47,936 nt of DNA. Origin: a virus (lineage: Duplodnaviria; Caudoviricetes). Position numbers and translations under genes: made by a program. The stretch lies in the IMG/VR virus record IMGVR_UViG_3300031949_000063, positions 1-47,936 of that record; one strand, 5' to 3'. Below the pieces are notes generated by a model that worked only from the letters and a program-made list of their open reading frames with translations, was not told the DNA's origin and searched no databases. This document shows, piece by piece, positions 1,016 through 47,874 of this stretch (the stretch's first letter is position 1; each line of letters opens with the position of its first letter).

Positions 1016-2888
1016 CGGTGCGGCCGTTTATGGAGAGGCGTTCCGTGAGGGCCTAAAACCCGACCCCCTCCTGACCGTCTCCGAGTGGGCGGACAAGGAA
1101 AGGATCCTCCCCCCGGTATCGTCTGCCGAGCCCGGACAGTGGCGCACCTCCCGTACTCCATATCTACGGGAGATTATGGATTGCCTCTCTCCGTCTTCTC
1201 CGGTCCAGCGCGTGACCTTCATGAAGGGCTCGCAGATCGGAGCGACCGAGAGCGGGAACAATTGGATCGGGTACGTCATTGCGATGGCGCCAGGGCCGAT
1301 GTTGGCCGTCCAGCCGAACCTGGACATGGCGAAGCGGTTCTCGAAGCAGCGCGTTCAACCCACGATCCGGAACACTCCCGCGCTTCACGGCAAAGTGAAG
1401 GACGCCCGGGTGCGGGATTCCGGCAATACGATCCTCGTCAAACAGTTCCCCGGCGGGATCCTGGTTATCACCGGGGCGGAATCGGCAACCAGCTTGCGGT
1501 CCATGCCGGCGCGTTACCTGTTCATGGACGAGATAGACCCGTATCCCGACGATTGCGGGGGAGAGGGCGATCCGTGCGGCTTGGCCGAAGCGCGGACGGC
1601 TACGTTCTCTTCACGGAAAAAGATATTCGAGACGTCTACTCCAACGGAGGCGGGGCGGTCTCGGATCGAGAGGCGATACGAACTCTCCGACAAGCGAAGG
1701 TATTTCGTCCCCTGCCCGTTCTGCAAGGGAGAGCAGTGGCTCAAGTGGGGGCAGATCGTATTCGATAAGGACGAGAAGTACCGGCTCACGGGTCCGGTCC
1801 GTTATAAGTGCGAGCATTGCGACGAATTGATCGATGAGCGGTACAAGACTTGGATGCTGGAATCAGGGAGGTGGATCGCCGAGGCCCCGGGCCCCGGGAA
1901 GCCCGCCGGGTTTTTCCTGTCGTCCCTCTATTCGCCCCTCGGCTGGCTCTCTTGGGATGCCATTGCGCAGGAGTTTCTCGACGCACGGAAGACCCGAGAC
2001 GTCGCGGCCCTGAAAGTGTGGACGAATACGAAGCTCGCCGAGGTCTGGGAGGAGGAAGGACTCGTCATCGACGACGGCACGCTCCTTTCGCGGCGCGAGA
2101 AATACCCGGCCGCTATTCCGGCTGGCGGGCTTGTCCTCACGATCGGAGTCGACCTGCAGGCCGATCGGATCGAGGCGTCCGTCGATGCTTGGGGCAAGCA
2201 CGAGGAAAGCTGGCTGATTGAATACGCCATCTTCCGCGGGAACCCAGAGACGGACCTGAAAGTCTGGGAGGACCTGCGAATCCTCCTGGATCGTTCGTGG
2301 GATCATGAATTGGGAGCTTCCCTGAGAATTGCTGCGGGCTGCGTCGATTCGGGACACGCGACGAGCCAGGTGTACAAGTTCGTCCGCACGATGGAACACC
2401 GCAGGGTATACGCCATCAAGGGGCAGGGAGGAAAGGGACTCCCGATCATCCGGATCTCCGAGAAGCGCAATAAGGCCAGGATCAAGCTCGGATTGGTCGG
2501 CGTGGACACTTGCAAGTCGCTTATCTATTCCCGGGTGATGCTTCCCGACTTTGGGCCGGGGTATATGCACTTCCCTACGTCGGTAGGTGAGGATTACTTC
2601 TCTGGGCTGACTGCGGAGAAGCGGGTCATCCGGAAGGTGCGCGGCAAGGAAATTGAGGAGTGGGTCAAAGTCCGGGCGCGAAATGAGCCGCTGGATTGCC
2701 GTGTCTATTCGCACGCGGCGCTGGATCTCCTGAAAATAAGGGATTGGGATCGGCTGGCGTTAAACATCAAGCGGCAGGCGGAGCTCCGCAAGGAAGAAAA
2801 GCCACCGGAGGACGCCGCACCACAAAACAATCCCACGCCCCCGCGTGGCGGGATGCCCCGCAAGGGCTGGTCCGCAACTCGCTGGTAA
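996..2888 (+). CDS. terL: Terminase large subunit (GpA family)
   Basis: TVSEWAD, PGQWRTSRTPY, KGSQIGATE Walker A, LFMDEID Walker B, STPT, Zn-finger, GVDLQ nuclease, RNEPLDC. Confidence 0.96.
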   Translation: MSSRQSDGAAVYGEAFREGLKPDPLLTVSEWADKERILPPVSSAEPGQWRTSRTPYLREIMDCLSPSSPVQRVTFMKGSQIGATESGNNWIGYVIAMAPGPMLAVQPNLDMAKRFSKQRVQPTIRNTPALHGKVKDARVRDSGNTILVKQFPGGILVITGAESATSLRSMPARYLFMDEIDPYPDDCGGEGDPCGLAEARTATFSSRKKIFETSTPTEAGRSRIERRYELSDKRRYFVPCPFCKGEQWLKWGQIVFDKDEKYRLTGPVRYKCEHCDELIDERYKTWMLESGRWIAEAPGPGKPAGFFLSSLYSPLGWLSWDAIAQEFLDARKTRDVAALKVWTNTKLAEVWEEEGLVIDDGTLLSRREKYPAAIPAGGLVLTIGVDLQADRIEASVDAWGKHEESWLIEYAIFRGNPETDLKVWEDLRILLDRSWDHELGASLRIAAGCVDSGHATSQVYKFVRTMEHRRVYAIKGQGGKGLPIIRISEKRNKARIKLGLVGVDTCKSLIYSRVMLPDFGPGYMHFPTSVGEDYFSGLTAEKRVIRKVRGKEIEEWVKVRARNEPLDCRVYSHAALDLLKIRDWDRLALNIKRQAELRKEEKPPEDAAPQNNPTPPRGGMPRKGWSATRW

Positions 2889-2897
2889 GGAGCGCCC

Positions 2898-3446
2898 ATG
2901 AATATTCCGAGTGCGATCACCGCGGGCGATACTGTCGACTGGACGGACTCCCTATCCGATTATCCGGCGACGACGTGGACGTTGAAGTATTCCCTCTGGA
3001 AATACGGGAACGCCGTCATCCTGATCATCGCATCGGCCTCCGGGACCGATCACGCCGTCGCAGTGCCCGCCGCCACCTCGAAGGCGTACGCCGCAGGGGA
3101 ATGGCAGTGGACCGCCTACGCGGAGAAGGGGTCCGGGGCGACGCTCGAGCGATACACGGTCGCCACGGGCCGTGTCACGATCAAGCCGGACGTCGCCGCC
3201 GCCAACGCCTCGGCGGACTTTCGGTCGCATGCGGAGAAGATGCTCGCCGGAATCGAGGCGACGCTGCTCGGGCGTGCCACCCGGGCAGAACTCTCCCTTA
3301 CGATCAACGGGAAGGCGATCCAGTACATGAAAACGAAGGAACTTCGGGATGAACGCGCGTATTTTCTGAGCGAGGTCGCAAAAGAACAACGCGCCGAAAG
3401 CGGTATTAATCCCGGCCGTCGAATAATGACGAGGTTCGGACCATGA
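2898..3446 (+). CDS. Head-tail adaptor (extended gpW-like)
   Basis: Lies between terL and portal; C-terminal gpW-like segment (LTINGKAIQY..KEL). Confidence 0.7.
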   Translation: MNIPSAITAGDTVDWTDSLSDYPATTWTLKYSLWKYGNAVILIIASASGTDHAVAVPAATSKAYAAGEWQWTAYAEKGSGATLERYTVATGRVTIKPDVAAANASADFRSHAEKMLAGIEATLLGRATRAELSLTINGKAIQYMKTKELRDERAYFLSEVAKEQRAESGINPGRRIMTRFGP

Positions 3447-5005
3447 GCATCATTCGGACCTTCCTGCGGGACTTCGGGTATCTCCATCGAGACGATCTGC
3501 GTAAGTCGGCGAGGGGATATTCTGCCGCATCGAGCAGCAGGCTCCTTGGCGACTGGATCATGTCACCGGTTACGGCCGATGCGGATATTCGGGCGGGACT
3601 TCTTGCAGTCCGGACGCGCGCGCGCGACCTGGCGCAGAACAATGATCTTGCGAAAGCGTATCTCCGGGCGATGAAGAAGAACGTCGTCGGCTCATCCGGT
3701 TTCGCGCTCCAGGTCAAGGCGATGGATTACTTCAACGGGAAGTTGGCTCCGGACAAAGCCGACAACGATTACCTTGAGCGTTCATTTTATGAATGGATGA
3801 AACCCGAGACGGCGACTGTCACCGGCAAATTATCATTCCGTAAGGTCCAGGAGCTTGTCATAGAGACGGTCGCCCGGGATGGAGAGATCTTCATTCACCT
3901 GATGCGCGGGGAGAGAATCAATCAATTCGGGTTCACTCTGCAGATCATCGAACCCGATTATGTGGACGAGAAATACAGCGACATCATGAAAAACGGGAAC
4001 ATCATCGTCATGGGCGTAGAGATGACCCTGTATCGCAAACCGGTCGCCTATCATGTCGCCGAACAAAATACTTCACTCGCGCTGTACGGTTCATTTTATG
4101 TCGGCGCTCCGTACCGAAGGATTCCCGCCGGGGACATCATCCACATATACGACCCGGATCGGGCCGATCAGACGCGCGGGATCTCCTGGATGCATTCGGG
4201 AATGGTGAGTACCCGGCACCTTGGGGGATACATCGAGGCGGCGGTCGTAAACTCCCGCGCCGGTGCCTGCAAGATGGGATTTTTCACGGATCCGACCGGA
4301 GACGCAGGAGAATATCAGGGCGACGAGACGAAGGCGGATACCGGTCTGCAAACTGATATTGCCGAACCGGGCACATTCAAGGACATCGGCCGGCATGGGT
4401 TCACTCCTTACGATCCGAAGTACCCGCATGAGCAGTTCGACCCGTTCACGAAGGCGATGATCCGGTTCATCGCATCAGGTCTCGGTGTTTCCTATCAGAC
4501 GCTGTCCGGGGATCTATCGGAGACGAGTTACGCTTCCGGCCGCCAGGGACTCCTCGAGGAGCGGGAGACGTACAAGAGCGCTCAGGAATTCATACGGGAA
4601 ACGTTCCTCGACCGCGTCTATGCCGAGTGGCTCTATATGGGACTTATGACCGGCCGGTTGAATCTTCCCTTCGCGAAGTTCAAGAAATTCAATTCGCCGA
4701 AATGGACCGGGCGGCGTTGGTCGTGGGTCGACCCCCTCAAGGACGTTCAGGCGGCGAAGGAAGCCCGGGCCGCCGGGTTCAAGTCGTCCACGCAGATCAT
4801 CAACGAGGCAGGCGGGGACATTGAAGATACCTACCTTGAAATGGAACAGGAGAACGCCCTGGCGTCGGAGCATGGTTTGAAGCTGGATTATGGAGTGAAG
4901 CCCGAAACTGTGCAGACGAATAAGGCCGATATGGACAACGAGGACCAGATGGCGGGCAAGCCGAAAAACAAGGGGAACGGAAAGGCTACCGCAGCGAACG
5001 ACTGA
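3443..5005 (+). CDS. Portal protein, lambda family
   Basis: RARDLAQNN, RDGEIF, QTRGISW, LSGDLSETSYASGRQG and WVDPLKD motifs. Confidence 0.95.
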   Translation: MSIIRTFLRDFGYLHRDDLRKSARGYSAASSSRLLGDWIMSPVTADADIRAGLLAVRTRARDLAQNNDLAKAYLRAMKKNVVGSSGFALQVKAMDYFNGKLAPDKADNDYLERSFYEWMKPETATVTGKLSFRKVQELVIETVARDGEIFIHLMRGERINQFGFTLQIIEPDYVDEKYSDIMKNGNIIVMGVEMTLYRKPVAYHVAEQNTSLALYGSFYVGAPYRRIPAGDIIHIYDPDRADQTRGISWMHSGMVSTRHLGGYIEAAVVNSRAGACKMGFFTDPTGDAGEYQGDETKADTGLQTDIAEPGTFKDIGRHGFTPYDPKYPHEQFDPFTKAMIRFIASGLGVSYQTLSGDLSETSYASGRQGLLEERETYKSAQEFIRETFLDRVYAEWLYMGLMTGRLNLPFAKFKKFNSPKWTGRRWSWVDPLKDVQAAKEARAAGFKSSTQIINEAGGDIEDTYLEMEQENALASEHGLKLDYGVKPETVQTNKADMDNEDQMAGKPKNKGNGKATAAND

Positions 5006-36401: not shown

Positions 36402-37052
36402 GTGACGGTCTCTTGCCCATATCTTCACAAGCCCGAGCCCTGCGCGCGCAGACAGAACTGGACGACTCCGGCTCCGAGCGATTGCCGGGAATGTGATTTT
36501 AGGGGGCGGCCGGCTACATCCACCGAAGCAGCAGCCCCGCCCGTGAAGACCCGCCCGAAAACCGAAACGATTACTCCGCCGAAGGAGGCCCCCGTGCCGA
36601 ACAAAATGACGCCGAAGGAGAGGTGCCTCGCGCTGCTGGCCCGAAACGGTTCCACTTCGCCGAGTCTGATGATGCAGCGCTGCCATATCTCCTCGGAGGA
36701 TCTGAAGGCGATCGTCGCCGAGGGGGAGATCAAGGCGTGGCCGTACCGTGGCATCCGCCAAAGGATGACGGTGATCTACACGCTTCCGGACGCGAAGGAC
36801 CCCCGCACGAAGGAGATGCTCGGGGGAGGAGTCGCGAAGTCGGAGAAGAAGGTGGCGCCGGCGAAGGCCACCGAGAAAAAGCCGGCGCGCGCCACGGGTG
36901 AACCTGTTGTTCGCAACAGGAAGCCGACCCCCTCCAATGGCTCCGGCTCAATCGCGGCGGTGATCGCCGACCTCGAGGCTCGCCGCGCGGAGGCGCTGGA
37001 CGCGGCAGAGAAGTACGACCGTGCGATCGATACGCTGAGGGCGCTGGCGTGA
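36402..37052 (+). CDS. Hypothetical, possible winged-helix protein (alternative start GTG 36594)
   Basis: Strong RBS before 36594; basic linker; C-terminal coiled coil. Confidence 0.5.
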   Translation: MTVSCPYLHKPEPCARRQNWTTPAPSDCRECDFRGRPATSTEAAAPPVKTRPKTETITPPKEAPVPNKMTPKERCLALLARNGSTSPSLMMQRCHISSEDLKAIVAEGEIKAWPYRGIRQRMTVIYTLPDAKDPRTKEMLGGGVAKSEKKVAPAKATEKKPARATGEPVVRNRKPTPSNGSGSIAAVIADLEARRAEALDAAEKYDRAIDTLRALA

Positions 37053-37279
37053 AGAACCTTCCCTGCTCCTGCGGCATCGTCACGCCCGACCCCTTGATCG
37101 TCGGCATCCAGGACGGCGTCGACGATCTTCCCCCACAGATCCTATGGAACTGCCTCAAGGGATCGACGCACGGGATTTTCAAGCCGCTGGCCACGCCGGA
37201 ACAATGGAGGATCGCGATGGACGTTGAGGATGCGGTCAGGCCGAAATCTCCAGAGATGATGGTGGGAGGCCGCCCGTAG
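37049..37279 (+). CDS. Hypothetical protein
   Basis: GTGA overlap with the upstream gene. Confidence 0.45.
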   Translation: MKNLPCSCGIVTPDPLIVGIQDGVDDLPPQILWNCLKGSTHGIFKPLATPEQWRIAMDVEDAVRPKSPEMMVGGRP

Positions 37280-37314
37280 ATGGAGCCCGCCCTGCGCCTG
37301 CCGATCTACCACCG

Positions 37315-39096
37315 ATGGAAGGGCCGCAGATGATCCTCCGCGCCGACGCAAGACATATCCCGTTGCGCGATGAGTCCGTTGACTCCATCGTTACCGATCC
37401 TCCCTATGAACTCGGTTTCATGGGGAAGAAGTGGGATTCCTCCGGTGTGGCGTACAGCGTGGACGTGTGGACCGAAGCGTTGCGCGTCCTTAAACCGGGC
37501 GGGCATCTGCTGGCGTTCGGAGGGTCCCGCACCTATCACCGGCTGGCATGTGCGATCGAGGATGCGGGGTTCGAGATTAGAGACCAAATGCAATGGATTT
37601 TTGGTCAAGGATTTCCGAAATCCAAGAATATAGGTTGCAGATGTGCTTCTGACGGTGTACGCTATAACCATGAGACTACATCCCAAAACATGCGAGATGT
37701 GCGGGAAATATTGGACGCCGAAGAACCGGTATCAGTCGAAGAGAAACAAGACGTGCTCAAGGCAATGCCTGAATCGCCTTCTACGAATAGTGGCTGGCAT
37801 GAAACCTGCCCCAGTACAGGAGCACAAGGGGAAGTCGAAGGCAACCTGCTCAGTATGCGGCACGGTGTTTTGGAGAAATTCAAGGCATCTGGCGAGAGTG
37901 TCACTCCCGGTTTGTTCGAGGATCTGCAACGGGAAGGTAAGGGCCAAGGATTTGATCCACTTCTCGGGGAACTGGAAGGGGAAGCACAGGCCGGGGAAAT
38001 ACGGCCCGAAGAATCCCGCGTGGAAGGGCGGGGTGACGTACAAGAGGCCCCACGGGAATTACAAGGGCGTGAAGTATGTCCGATGCCCGGAGAAGTTCAA
38101 GGCGATGGCCCGGAAGGACGGGTACGTGATGGAGCATCGCCTGATAATGGCCGAGAAGATCGGGAGGCCCCTGCTCCGGTCGGAAGTGGTGCATCATCGA
38201 GATCACAATCCCGCAAACAACACCCGCAAGAACCTCCTGATGTTCAATTCAAACGGGGAACACAAGAAGGCCGAGCCGAAACTTGCCCGAAGTGCGGGGG
38301 CCTGATTCAGTACAAAGGATTCGGGACAGCCTTAAAACCAGCACACGAGCCGCTTGTTCTCGCCCGCAAACCCCTCATCGGCACCGTCGCCGCGAACGTG
38401 CTGGCACGCGGGACGGGGGCGATCAACGTGGACGGATGCCGGGTGGGGACGGACGGCGGATGTCAAGGCGTAGGCGCAGGCGCAGGCGCGAGAGTCTTCA
38501 CCAACGCCCTGAACGGAACATTCGCCCCACCGGTGCCAGGATTGGGCCGCTGGCCCGCGAACGTCATCCACGACGGGAGTGAGGAAGTTGAGTCCCTATT
38601 TCCACAGACGACAAGCGGCGGGGATGGAGACAAGCGCGGCGGCTGTCAATTCTTTATGGGGGGCGACAAGCGGACGGAACCCGCCTATGGGCAACCGCGA
38701 GACTCCGGTTCCGCCGCCCGGTTCTTCTACTGCGCGAAGGCGAGCAAGGAGGACAGGGATTGGGCGCTGGAAGGGATGGAGGAAAGGAACGCCGACAATC
38801 GGCACGCCTATTCCGGACTTCCCGATTTACGGATGGACAAGGTGCAGGAACGCAAGTCGTCCCGCAACCACCACCCTACGGTGAAGCCCCTCGACCTGAT
38901 GCGCTACCTATGCCGCCTCGTGACGCCTCCGGGCGGGGTCGTGCTGGATCCGTTCGCAGGAAGCGGATCCACACTCCGGGGCGCGTTCCTCGAAGGATTC
39001 AAGCCCATCGGGATCGAGTTGGACGCGGAGTATTGCCGCATCGCAAGGGGCAGGATGAACCTGCTGACCCCGGCGATGGCGGGGTTGATGGGATGA
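37315..39096 (+). CDS. DNA N6-adenine/N4-cytosine methyltransferase (beta class) with a large internal insertion
   Basis: TDPPY, RVLKPGG, GFPKS, GTALKPAHEP, GRWPAN, HPTVKP and DPFAGSGST motifs, all in one open frame. Confidence 0.9.
   Translation: MEGPQMILRADARHIPLRDESVDSIVTDPPYELGFMGKKWDSSGVAYSVDVWTEALRVLKPGGHLLAFGGSRTYHRLACAIEDAGFEIRDQMQWIFGQGFPKSKNIGCRCASDGVRYNHETTSQNMRDVREILDAEEPVSVEEKQDVLKAMPESPSTNSGWHETCPSTGAQGEVEGNLLSMRHGVLEKFKASGESVTPGLFEDLQREGKGQGFDPLLGELEGEAQAGEIRPEESRVEGRGDVQEAPRELQGREVCPMPGEVQGDGPEGRVRDGASPDNGREDREAPAPVGSGASSRSQSRKQHPQEPPDVQFKRGTQEGRAETCPKCGGLIQYKGFGTALKPAHEPLVLARKPLIGTVAANVLARGTGAINVDGCRVGTDGGCQGVGAGAGARVFTNALNGTFAPPVPGLGRWPANVIHDGSEEVESLFPQTTSGGDGDKRGGCQFFMGGDKRTEPAYGQPRDSGSAARFFYCAKASKEDRDWALEGMEERNADNRHAYSGLPDLRMDKVQERKSSRNHHPTVKPLDLMRYLCRLVTPPGGVVLDPFAGSGSTLRGAFLEGFKPIGIELDAEYCRIARGRMNLLTPAMAGLMG
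37670..38305 (+). CDS. HNH endonuclease nested in the +1 frame inside the methyltransferase
   Basis: Two Zn-finger repeats (CxxC..CSxxC), NPAWKGG, YVMEHRLIM...EVVHHRDHNPANN...NL. Confidence 0.88.
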   Translation: MRLHPKTCEMCGKYWTPKNRYQSKRNKTCSRQCLNRLLRIVAGMKPAPVQEHKGKSKATCSVCGTVFWRNSRHLARVSLPVCSRICNGKVRAKDLIHFSGNWKGKHRPGKYGPKNPAWKGGVTYKRPHGNYKGVKYVRCPEKFKAMARKDGYVMEHRLIMAEKIGRPLLRSEVVHHRDHNPANNTRKNLLMFNSNGEHKKAEPKLARSAGA

Positions 39097-39145
39097 TCGC
39101 CATCCGTAAGGTCGACAAGTTCTGGTTCGTGGACCTGCTGGCGGG

Positions 39146-40291
39146 ATGAAGGGAAAGGCTTTTTACAACGAGATCGACCCGCGGGGTGCGGCGACCCTGC
39201 GGGAGCTGATCCGGAGGGGGATCATCGCCCCCGGCGACGTAGACGAAAGGAGCATCGAGGATGTCCGACCAGCCGATCTTGCCGGGTATGCACAGTGCCA
39301 CTTCTTCGCTGGCGCTGGCGTCTGGTCTTACGCCTTACGGTGCGCCGGCTGGCCCGACGACCGCCCCGTGTGGACTGGATCCTGCCCTTGCCAGCCTTTC
39401 AGCGCGGCAGGCAAAGGAGCGGGGGTTGCTGACGAGCGGCACCTATGGCCGGCGTGGGACTGGCTCATCGGACAGCGCCGACCTCATGTCGTCTTTGGTG
39501 AGCAGGTTGAAAGCGCGGTCCTCCATGGCTGGCTCGACCTTGTTCAATCTGACCTGGAAGGAAAAGGTTACGCCCTCGGGTCGATCGGTCTACCTGCTGC
39601 GGGCTTCGGTGCGCCGCACGGCCGGGCTCGGATTTACTTCGTGGCGGAGTCCGGCGGCGGGAGACTCGATCCGGGGTGTTCATCCGAACCCGGATGCGAG
39701 GGCGGGGCGGCATTCACTGAACAACGAGGCGGCGTTGTCTGGATGGCCGACGCCGGATACCCGACCGGATGCACCGAACAGCGGCACGAACCGGGGGAAG
39801 AACTGGGGCGGGGAGAGGCCGCGCCTAACGGTGCAGGGGCTCGGGAACGCGGCGCAGTTAGCGACTTGGCCGACACCTCGAACCCCGACAGGCGGCCCGG
39901 AGAGCGGGGAGAGGAAACAGGAACTCGGCCGGACGGAGAGCGGCGGCGGGGATCTGCAAGCGGTCGCTCTGATGGCATCGTGGGCAACCCCATCCAGCCG
40001 GGACTGGAAGGACACCCCGGGTATGAGCGAGACGGGGACGAACCCGGATGGGAGCAGCCGGACGCGTCTCGACCAGCTCCCGCGCCAGGTGCAGTTAACG
40101 GTTTCTGGGGGGGGGCAGAGTGGATTCCCTGCCGAGATGGAAAAGCCCGGCCAGTTGAACCCGGCACATTCCCGCTGGCTCATGGGGCTACCGCCCGTGT
40201 GGGACGACTGCATCTGTACGGCAATAGCATCGTTGCCCCGGTCGCGGAAGCGTTCGTGAGGGCGTATATGGACCTGCTGGCGAGAGCGTGA
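39146..40291 (+). CDS. C5 cytosine DNA methyltransferase, alpha polypeptide
   Basis: Motif I FFAGAG, motif IV SCPCQPFS, motif VI EQV, motif VIII HGRARIY, motif X YGNSIV; motif IX not evident. Confidence 0.88.
   Translation: MKGKAFYNEIDPRGAATLRELIRRGIIAPGDVDERSIEDVRPADLAGYAQCHFFAGAGVWSYALRCAGWPDDRPVWTGSCPCQPFSAAGKGAGVADERHLWPAWDWLIGQRRPHVVFGEQVESAVLHGWLDLVQSDLEGKGYALGSIGLPAAGFGAPHGRARIYFVAESGGGRLDPGCSSEPGCEGGAAFTEQRGGVVWMADAGYPTGCTEQRHEPGEELGRGEAAPNGAGARERGAVSDLADTSNPDRRPGERGEETGTRPDGERRRGSASGRSDGIVGNPIQPGLEGHPGYERDGDEPGWEQPDASRPAPAPGAVNGFWGGAEWIPCRDGKARPVEPGTFPLAHGATARVGRLHLYGNSIVAPVAEAFVRAYMDLLARA
39261..40259 (+). CDS. Overlapping +1-frame polypeptide (beta subunit-like) of the C5 methyltransferase
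   Basis: Has its own RBS and ATG; four W-x-[TS]-P repeats; motif IX-like LNPAHSRWLMGLP. Confidence 0.75.
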   Translation: MSDQPILPGMHSATSSLALASGLTPYGAPAGPTTAPCGLDPALASLSARQAKERGLLTSGTYGRRGTGSSDSADLMSSLVSRLKARSSMAGSTLFNLTWKEKVTPSGRSVYLLRASVRRTAGLGFTSWRSPAAGDSIRGVHPNPDARAGRHSLNNEAALSGWPTPDTRPDAPNSGTNRGKNWGGERPRLTVQGLGNAAQLATWPTPRTPTGGPESGERKQELGRTESGGGDLQAVALMASWATPSSRDWKDTPGMSETGTNPDGSSRTRLDQLPRQVQLTVSGGGQSGFPAEMEKPGQLNPAHSRWLMGLPPVWDDCICTAIASLPRSRKRS

Positions 40292-47088: not shown

Positions 47089-47874
47089 ATGGCAAGAGGT
47101 AGAGATCCAGAGAAGCGGAAGGCGTCGCAACGCGCGTTTTACGAAAGAAACAAAGAAAGACTTAAAGCGAAAGAACGGGCGAAGTGGCGAGTTGATGTAG
47201 AGCACAGTAGAAAGCGTATTAATGAAAGGATGGTGAAAAGGCGGGCAACGGAAGAAGGGAAAAAAGAAAGACAGGAGATCAGGAAAAGGGCGGCAGAAAG
47301 GAAGGGGAAAGGGTACCGAACTTCAAAAGAAAGAAGCGAACTCAAGGCGGCGCGGGAAACAGAGAAGGCTCGGCGCAGTGAAGAATGGGCGCAGCACGAG
47401 AATAAATGGATCGTGAGGTTAAAGAAAGAATTACCGGATCTTCATGACCCATCGCTCAGTATTAGTACTTTGGTTTATCGTGCCCGATATAACCTTGACG
47501 ATATATTTAAGGCGCGAGAGATCGCGCGGGCGGCGAAATCAGACAGCAAGGCGACCCTGCTTGACGACGGGTCGCTGACGCCTGAAATTATGCGCTTACT
47601 CTTTACTCGTAAGGATTGCCCATACTGCGGGAGGCGCATGGCATCTCAGGATAAAACACTGGACCACATTATACCGCGATGGCGCGGAGGTTGGCATTCA
47701 AAGAGGAACGCCATCGTTTGCTGTTACTCCTGCAACAGCAAGAAGCGGGCAAAGACGCCAGAGCAATGGCTCGAATGTATTGATAAATCAAGGCAAGTCC
47801 ATGTAAGGCGGGCATGGCAGAGCGCAGGGGCGGGAGAGGCGGCACAGGGTTGGCTTATAGTATCAAATGGATAA
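47089..47874 (+). CDS. HNH endonuclease next to cos (possible terminase-associated)
   Basis: CPYCG...TLDHIIP..RGG.H...N...CC..CNSKK. Confidence 0.88.
   Translation: MARGRDPEKRKASQRAFYERNKERLKAKERAKWRVDVEHSRKRINERMVKRRATEEGKKERQEIRKRAAERKGKGYRTSKERSELKAARETEKARRSEEWAQHENKWIVRLKKELPDLHDPSLSISTLVYRARYNLDDIFKAREIARAAKSDSKATLLDDGSLTPEIMRLLFTRKDCPYCGRRMASQDKTLDHIIPRWRGGWHSKRNAIVCCYSCNSKKRAKTPEQWLECIDKSRQVHVRRAWQSAGAGEAAQGWLIVSNG

Follow-up and report, generated by a model that had tools for sequence, protein, structure and literature searches.

The window, by which we mean the entire 47,936-base virus record analysed here (98% complete), belongs to a temperate tailed phage; genes for terminase, portal, major head, tape measure, RecT and integrase are recognised on it by PHROGs-type profile matches. 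Within its replication region, a DNA methyltransferase gene harbours a second, complete gene for an HNH endonuclease on the same strand (Table 1), and another methylase gene, for a cytosine enzyme, follows directly 3' of the pair. The two overlapping frames are offset by 355 nt, and the longest form of the HNH frame begins with a GTG at 37643. An assembly join as the cause of the overlap is ruled out by a single contig of run X1, possibly the source sample, which spans 37433-38579 and thus the insert with 0 differences. The genome holds no second copy of the element. Three free-standing HNH genes lie elsewhere on the phage (34478-35071 and 35365-36009 on the minus strand, 47089-47874 on the plus strand).

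Table 1. Features of the methyltransferase/HNH locus, in window coordinates
Feature	Position	Strand	Remarks
Beta-class N6/N4 DNA methyltransferase gene	37315..39096	+	593 aa, open throughout
Catalytic motif DPPY (aa 28-31)	37396..37407	+	Invariant in 73-row alignment
Gly-Gln where relatives carry the intein (between Gly and Ser)	37603..37608	+	Candidate altered homing site (proposed role)
GFPKS, left conserved flank	37609..37623	+	Opens loop between strands beta4 and beta5
Insert, methylase frame, 233 codons	37624..38322	+	Replaces variable loop of 12-170 aa
Putative -35 box TTGCAG	37635..37640	+	17 nt before -10 box; overlaps C108 codon
CxC = CRC (C108, C110), left half of putative clasp, methylase frame	37636..37644	+	
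Putative -10 box TACGCT	37658..37663	+	6 nt before HNH ATG, leaderless geometry
HNH endonuclease gene, 211 aa, +1 frame	37670..38305	+	ATG start; wholly inside methylase ORF
HNH zinc finger 1 (C8, C11, C29, C33)	37691..37768	+	From sequence; shorter relatives are without this finger
HNH zinc finger 2 (C60, C63, C82, C86)	37847..37927	+	Invariant in 61 sequences
HNH nuclease core (E155-H156-R157, H175-H176, N188, H198-K199, E202)	38132..38275	+	Invariant columns in 61 sequences
CxxC = CPKC (C324, C327), right half of putative clasp, methylase frame	38284..38295	+	Overlaps variable HNH tail
GTALKP, right conserved flank	38323..38340	+	From sequence and alignment
SAM-binding motif DPFAGSG (aa 545-551)	38947..38967	+	D545, P546, F547, G549, S550, G551 invariant in 73-row alignment

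A sequence-only reading of this DNA had recognised in the inner frame a 211-aa HNH protein with zinc fingers and the motifs EHRLIM and HH.D.N..NN. This is borne out by the ORF map and by matches to PHROGs HNH families (down to E 2e-16); EHRLIM and HHRDHNPANN are both present, and a Pfam HNH_3 match falls below the cut-off (E 1.9e-4). The structure model of the protein (pLDDT 88) has its nearest, albeit weak, fold in I-HmuI (Z 5.6, rmsd 3.9, 78 aligned residues; Foldseek E 0.45), and a Foldseek search with the model returned nothing at E<=0.001.

A methyltransferase with an insert in a variable loop

The outer frame matches Pfam N6_N4_Mtase (E 1.6e-29) and the CcrM profile 6pbd (E 8e-36). DPPY precedes FxGxG, and the modelled structure has a CcrM/RsrI-like fold that matches M.BceJIV and CcrM, as expected of a beta-class amino-methyltransferase. 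The frame does remain open across the ~220-codon insert, as had been claimed: the ORF is uninterrupted, with 233 aa from GFPKS to GTALKP, 220 of which span C108 to C327. Read in the host frame, the insert has no Pfam match. Its description as low-complexity and E/G/Q/P-rich holds for the enrichment (41% vs 28% in the remaining methylase protein), but "biased" is a fairer word than "low-complexity". An AlphaFold model of the full-length methylase gives a pLDDT above 90 for the core and below 50 for most of aa 113-320 (71 at CxxC); this predicted combination of ordered core and disordered insert is consistent with the suggestion that the insert is tolerated as a disordered loop.

In empty alleles, the loop from GFPK to GTALKP spans 12-170 aa. 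Aligning such insert-free homologues, as had been proposed, places the insert in a variable loop but cannot fix its exact ends, because the empty loop is hypervariable; a related X1 allele, which jumps from 37600 to 38383 across undetermined bases, is too divergent for placing them. A search of 37550-38450 for target-site duplications or terminal repeats found short, chance-like pairs only. In the alignment, the loop comes after strand beta4 and corresponds to Loop-45 of CcrM, which contacts and reads DNA (PMC6787082). It follows that the insert could impair the enzyme, and also that closing the ends of the loop should matter. In three other loci (L355, L366, L387), the same loop is occupied by an HNH of yet another, third type (292-297 aa, read in the +2 frame), with the host frame open and without the cysteine pairs described below, which marks the loop as a hot spot.

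The host frame is kept open by selection

For the host frame to acquire a stop codon, an HNH codon that is followed by AA, AG or GA must end in T; we refer to such third positions as risk sites. The HNH gene of the window uses 0 of its 45 risk sites, where 10.4 are expected (P ~7e-6), and permuting its synonymous codons left the host frame free of stops in 1 of 3000 permutations. The third frame across the insert contains 12 stops (10.1 expected), and two other HNH genes of the phage use 17/45 and 9/36 of their risk sites. Such depletion is absent from the other genes of the phage, except for the second frame of the adjoining C5 cytosine methylase. The latter consists of two overlapping frames (39146-40291 and 39261-40259, plus strand) that both match methyltransferase families, a layout that resembles the two-frame arrangement of M.EcoHK31I; its inner ORF uses 0/43 risk sites for outer-frame stops (9.3 expected).

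Depletion extends to the relatives of the element, with the caveat that all counts across relatives, here and in the later sections, are inflated by kinship: none of 685 risk sites is used in 21 non-redundant intein-free elements (223 expected) and none of 2015 in 55 intein-borne elements (758 expected), while 78 of the top 80 viral loci (out of 111; HNH identity 38-69%) and 75 of 76 scorable metagenome loci (from the top 80 out of 327) are free of host-frame stops, the one metagenome exception repeating the viral locus L023. Relatives with methylase-frame stops, whose frequent occurrence had been named as grounds for giving up the idea, do exist, but only as a small minority with a split methylase (L023, L075, L181), which represents a different solution rather than decay. 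Two of these split loci are undepleted (L023 uses 16/38 and L075 17/37 risk sites) and serve as a control, indicating that depletion serves read-through. The open host frame is under selection, and the earlier proposal that stops are purged from it is upheld by the codon statistics of the window and of its relatives alike. A locus with a more distant HNH (L174) has an open 722-aa host frame in another methylase, where the HNH lies directly before the DPF motif, is surrounded by CxC and CxxC and uses 0/28 risk sites.

One HNH family in inteins, loops and split genes

Among the same top 80 viral loci (out of 111), the HNH is intein-borne in 54 (one cut by the contig end), lies in a read-through loop in 24 and is associated with a split methylase in two. 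The inteins interrupt Trp-x-Tyr-Gly-Ser-Gly-Phe-Pro-Lys between Gly and Ser, seven codons upstream of the loop insertion, and carry the HNH out of frame. Their assignment is based on their ends (C...GN followed by S), on exteins that, once joined, restore the empty consensus (Gly-Ser in 51 of 52) and on weak profile matches: TIGR01445 at E 1e-3 in one of five intein-class relatives tested, the AceL intein 6zgq at E 3e-4, and intein-related NCBIfam models in three of five; a Pfam Hint domain was found in none of four tested.

In contrast to these 54 of 80 relatives, an intein can be dismissed for the window, which has neither Hint domain nor intein ends; its methylase matches no intein family and contains no terminal Asn before Cys, Ser or Thr. 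As to a group I or group II intron, Rfam yields no match at E<=1 over 37000-39400, and little non-coding room is left for a ribozyme core. These profile searches agree with the earlier remark that neither intein ends nor an intron core are evident in the sequence. Might the insert nevertheless be removed, by unrecognised RNA splicing, ribosome bypass or protein splicing? Close relatives protein-splice seven codons away, and the insert begins near a Cys and is followed by a Thr. Against this stand the missing Rfam and intein matches and the missing terminal Asn; moreover, removal at the RNA level would need no purging of stops along the whole insert, and the HNH gene takes up 636 of its 699 nt, which leaves almost no non-coding room for a ribozyme. 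Removal of the insert hence appears very improbable.

In the split loci L075 (~2100-3560) and L181 (~1100-2500), whose HNHs are 65% identical, one methylase ORF terminates ahead of the HNH and a second opens beyond it, the two positions matching between the loci. In L023 (~1500-3520, minus strand), the methylase is interrupted upstream of W-x-Y-G by an HNH gene in antisense orientation; CHC closes the first half and CPCC opens the second, which makes these cysteines a candidate zinc clasp that would link the two chains. An HNH core tree of 102 rows, from which L262, L294 and seven distant rows were left out, places the window together with L001 within a nine-member loop clade (97) among intein-borne rows. 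A single clade of loop and split elements is not rejected on the HNH common core (p-AU 0.51). Repeated switching between intein and loop, for which a first quick tree needed at least three changes, was abandoned, since on the common core only one change, in either direction, is certain.

The abundance of inteins bears on another alternative, namely that the host frame is open only as a leftover of a recent intein, or as a safeguard against downstream polarity, and that the loop-bearing methylase is inactive. Within an intein the frame is necessarily open, and the HNH clade of the window lies among intein-borne relatives; the insert occupies the counterpart of the DNA-reading loop of CcrM; and the methylase is noted as dispensable in section 4.1 of the ShiLan paper (Arsenault 2025, PMC11855218). 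An inactive enzyme is, however, at odds with catalytic and SAM motifs that are invariant in 18 carriers of the cysteine pairs at 38-67% identity to the window, and with the complete lack of used risk sites in divergent intein-free elements while split relatives from the same HNH group are undepleted. Paired cysteines would also be pointless in a dead protein. We consider this alternative unlikely.

Cysteine pairs at the ends of the loop

As had been pointed out, CRC and CPKC bracket the insert in the methylase frame, and they do so at the positions given in Table 1. Among 41 non-redundant loop elements, 27 contain both a CxC and a CxxC, seven neither, four the right pair only and three the left pair only, and the two pairs co-occur (Fisher p 0.0013, nominal). 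In the three left-only elements, a CxxC is present 18-20 aa further out; in the four right-only elements, the CxxC is at a shifted, HNH-derived position. The combined pattern occurs in 0 of 76 empty loops. Co-occurrence and absence from empty alleles back the notion of a putative cysteine clasp. Such a clasp is not required, since in 11 of the 41 loop elements at least one pair is missing from the whole vicinity and the frame is open all the same.

Alternatively, the element may be read through as proposed, with cysteine pairs that are mere by-products of the promoter TTG (see below) and of the HNH tail and that bind nothing. Consistent with this, the first Cys codon (C108) shares nucleotides with the putative -35 TTG, both in the window and in five relatives, the HNH-derived CxxC occurs without the left pair in four elements and neither pair occurs in seven, and the model reaches a pLDDT of just 50-71 at the two pairs. 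Conversely, the left CxC persists in elements whose HNH start and promoter are located elsewhere (L040, L055, L060, L063, L065, L072), the HNH-frame residues that overlap the CxxC are variable, and the same pairs recur around another HNH type in StellaBean, Applejack and Lamina13, at a third insertion site, and outside the antisense HNH of L023. By-product cysteines seem rather unlikely. At the third site, which lies before a duplicated W-x-Y/H-G, the cassette is read through in frame (L498, L425); L498 has both cysteine pairs and L425 at least the right one. Two empty loops (L119, L132) contain a compact CxxC...CxC, the reverse order of the clasp.

A putative internal promoter

Of 38 intein-free elements that start with ATG, 12 have a TAnnnT whose end lies exactly 6 nt upstream of this codon, compared with 0.36-0.47 expected; one of the 12 (L296) probably represents a wrong start. 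Boxes of the -10 type located 6-7 nt before an ATG are a mark of leaderless transcripts. For the host frame, the A of the -10 box is a synonymous position, and a TTG is located 17 nt upstream of the -10 box in the window, L001, L039, L067, L078, L229 and the split L075. The latter has TTGATA-17-TAATAT at a place where no host frame constrains the boxes, and two metagenome loci (L451, L459) repeat the promoter spacing. The boxes of the window agree with consensus at 6 of 12 positions only, and a consensus promoter scan of the window found no site; 26 of the 38 elements are without the -10 spacing, several having Shine-Dalgarno-like motifs instead. Taken as a pattern of sequence, the conserved spacing suggests that the HNH is made from a leaderless transcript.

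Mobility and a candidate target site

Has the element moved between methylases? A methylase tree was built with inserts removed (98 rows: 28 loop, 25 intein and 45 randomly kept empty alleles). On this tree the loop label needs 19 changes, seven of them forced by strong branches, compared with four on the HNH tree, and a single clade of loop carriers is rejected (p-AU 7.6e-5). Beyond L001, the nearest methylases of the window are empty alleles; among the 79 methylases nearest to its N-terminus, this insert is present in 0 of 76 parsed loops. The element is mobile, its carriers being scattered over the methylase tree. Together with the codon tests and the model of an ordered core with a disordered insert, this distribution supports the splicing-free homing element that had been envisaged.

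The three insertion points fall within a stretch of ~15 codons about the site of the intein. Of 130 empty alleles, 118 retain Gly-Ser there (70/75 and 48/55), compared with 14 of 41 loop carriers and two of eight new metagenome loops. As a lead from sequence, the loss of Gly-Ser would fit self-immunity of a target that is left unbroken by loop insertion; relaxed protein constraint would explain it too, and a third of the carriers retain the site.

A proposed mechanism

How might a hidden nuclease spread without destroying its host enzyme? We envision a mobile homing cassette that consists of a Cys pair with an internal promoter, an out-of-frame HNH gene and a second Cys pair, and assign to this reading a probability of roughly 0.72. 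The HNH would be translated from a short transcript of its own, which is probably leaderless, as the conserved promoter spacing suggests. Because its HNH motif is intact, it would nick or cut insert-free methylase alleles in co-infecting phages or prophages, and recombination would copy the cassette in; mobility is shown by the incongruence of methylase and HNH trees, and the RecT and integrase genes of the phage count in its favour. Selection clears all host-frame stops; the methylase would probably be translated straight through the cassette into an active enzyme, and the cassette would be tolerated in a loop that already measures 12-170 aa in empty alleles. It is reasonably likely, judging from the co-occurrence of the two pairs, that CxC and CxxC would bind one zinc and so pin the ends of the 220-aa disordered loop by the conserved flanks. 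More tentatively, the target may include the codons for Tyr-Gly-Ser-Gly-Phe-Pro-Lys; intein-free carriers often alter them, which might confer self-immunity.

A more general possibility, which we put forward with some reserve, is that the zinc clasp is an element-encoded substitute for splicing, and that one HNH lineage has reached three settlements at one spot: an intein, a clasped loop with its own leaderless promoter, and a split gene, where the pairs of L023 would join two polypeptides. If true, this would amount to a natural experiment on homing nucleases that gain or shed splicing hosts. The family offers testable answers on how a hidden HNH is expressed, what it cuts and how the host enzyme survives, in the form of a candidate promoter, a candidate target and four cysteines. 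Moreover, it connects the intein-borne with the intein-free state of a single nuclease and is thereby relevant to the question whether homing nucleases enter inteins secondarily.

Comparison with known systems

I-HmuI, which is intron-encoded and, to our knowledge, without the two N-terminal C4 fingers, resembles the HNH of the window in the fold of the nuclease core, and this match is weak (PDB 1u3e). The basic layout of a hidden HNH is no longer surprising: the ShiLan domain, an out-of-frame HNH concealed in mycobacteriophage DNA methylases, has been published (PMC11855218), and its mobility is reported by Gosselin 2023 (PMC9957025). The ShiLan elements and the window share the N6/N4 methylase family (Mantra gp64 aligns), a stop-free insertion in the methylase, a frame-shifted HNH with zinc fingers, the absence of intein or intron signs, and a sporadic, disjunct distribution, and the HNH of Mantra gp64 is distantly homologous to that of the window (28.6% identity, E 4e-8). 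On the other hand, the ShiLan HNH is in the +2 frame, starts with a GTG 18 bp in, lies after GTALKP and comes with an 11-residue duplication, whereas that of the window is in the +1 frame, starts with an ATG and lies before GTALKP; Mantra lacks the clasp that the window possesses. The different insertion site and frame rule out that the window holds the ShiLan element itself. The ShiLan account proposes leaderless initiation without a sequence signal; a term search of its complete text did not find the word "promoter" and found cysteine only for the HNH fingers (PMC11855218).

StellaBean gp97/98, Applejack gp54/55 and Lamina13 gp61/62 are closer in position, with an HNH in the +1 frame of the same loop and RCDC...CSWC end pairs; their overlaps are already annotated in GenBank, and the Applejack case is named in PMC12613952. 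Their HNH is of another type (CxxC...HH...CxxCH), falls outside the 29 tblastn matches of the window's HNH and has a Shine-Dalgarno-like GAGG before its ATG. Inteins with out-of-frame nucleases are known for other nuclease types (10.1101/2025.01.02.630785; 10.64898/2026.09.14.751524); this layout is common to most relatives of the present HNH, unlike the window, which has no intein. As far as their accessible text goes, those accounts contain neither an out-of-frame HNH in a methylase intein nor a nuclease common to intein-borne and intein-free states. Rescue of a split gene is described for Aeh1 nrdA, split by mobE (PMC3045599), a situation like that of L075, L181 and L023, in which an HNH splits the methylase and the halves have new tails, and different from the unsplit gene of the window. 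In the literature searched, mostly open-access articles in their main text, we found nothing on the clasp, on the internal promoter or on an HNH common to intein and intein-free states. To a kind of element that is known, the present analysis adds an HNH lineage that extends across intein, loop and split gene, the promoter spacing, the statistics of the putative clasp and the altered site.
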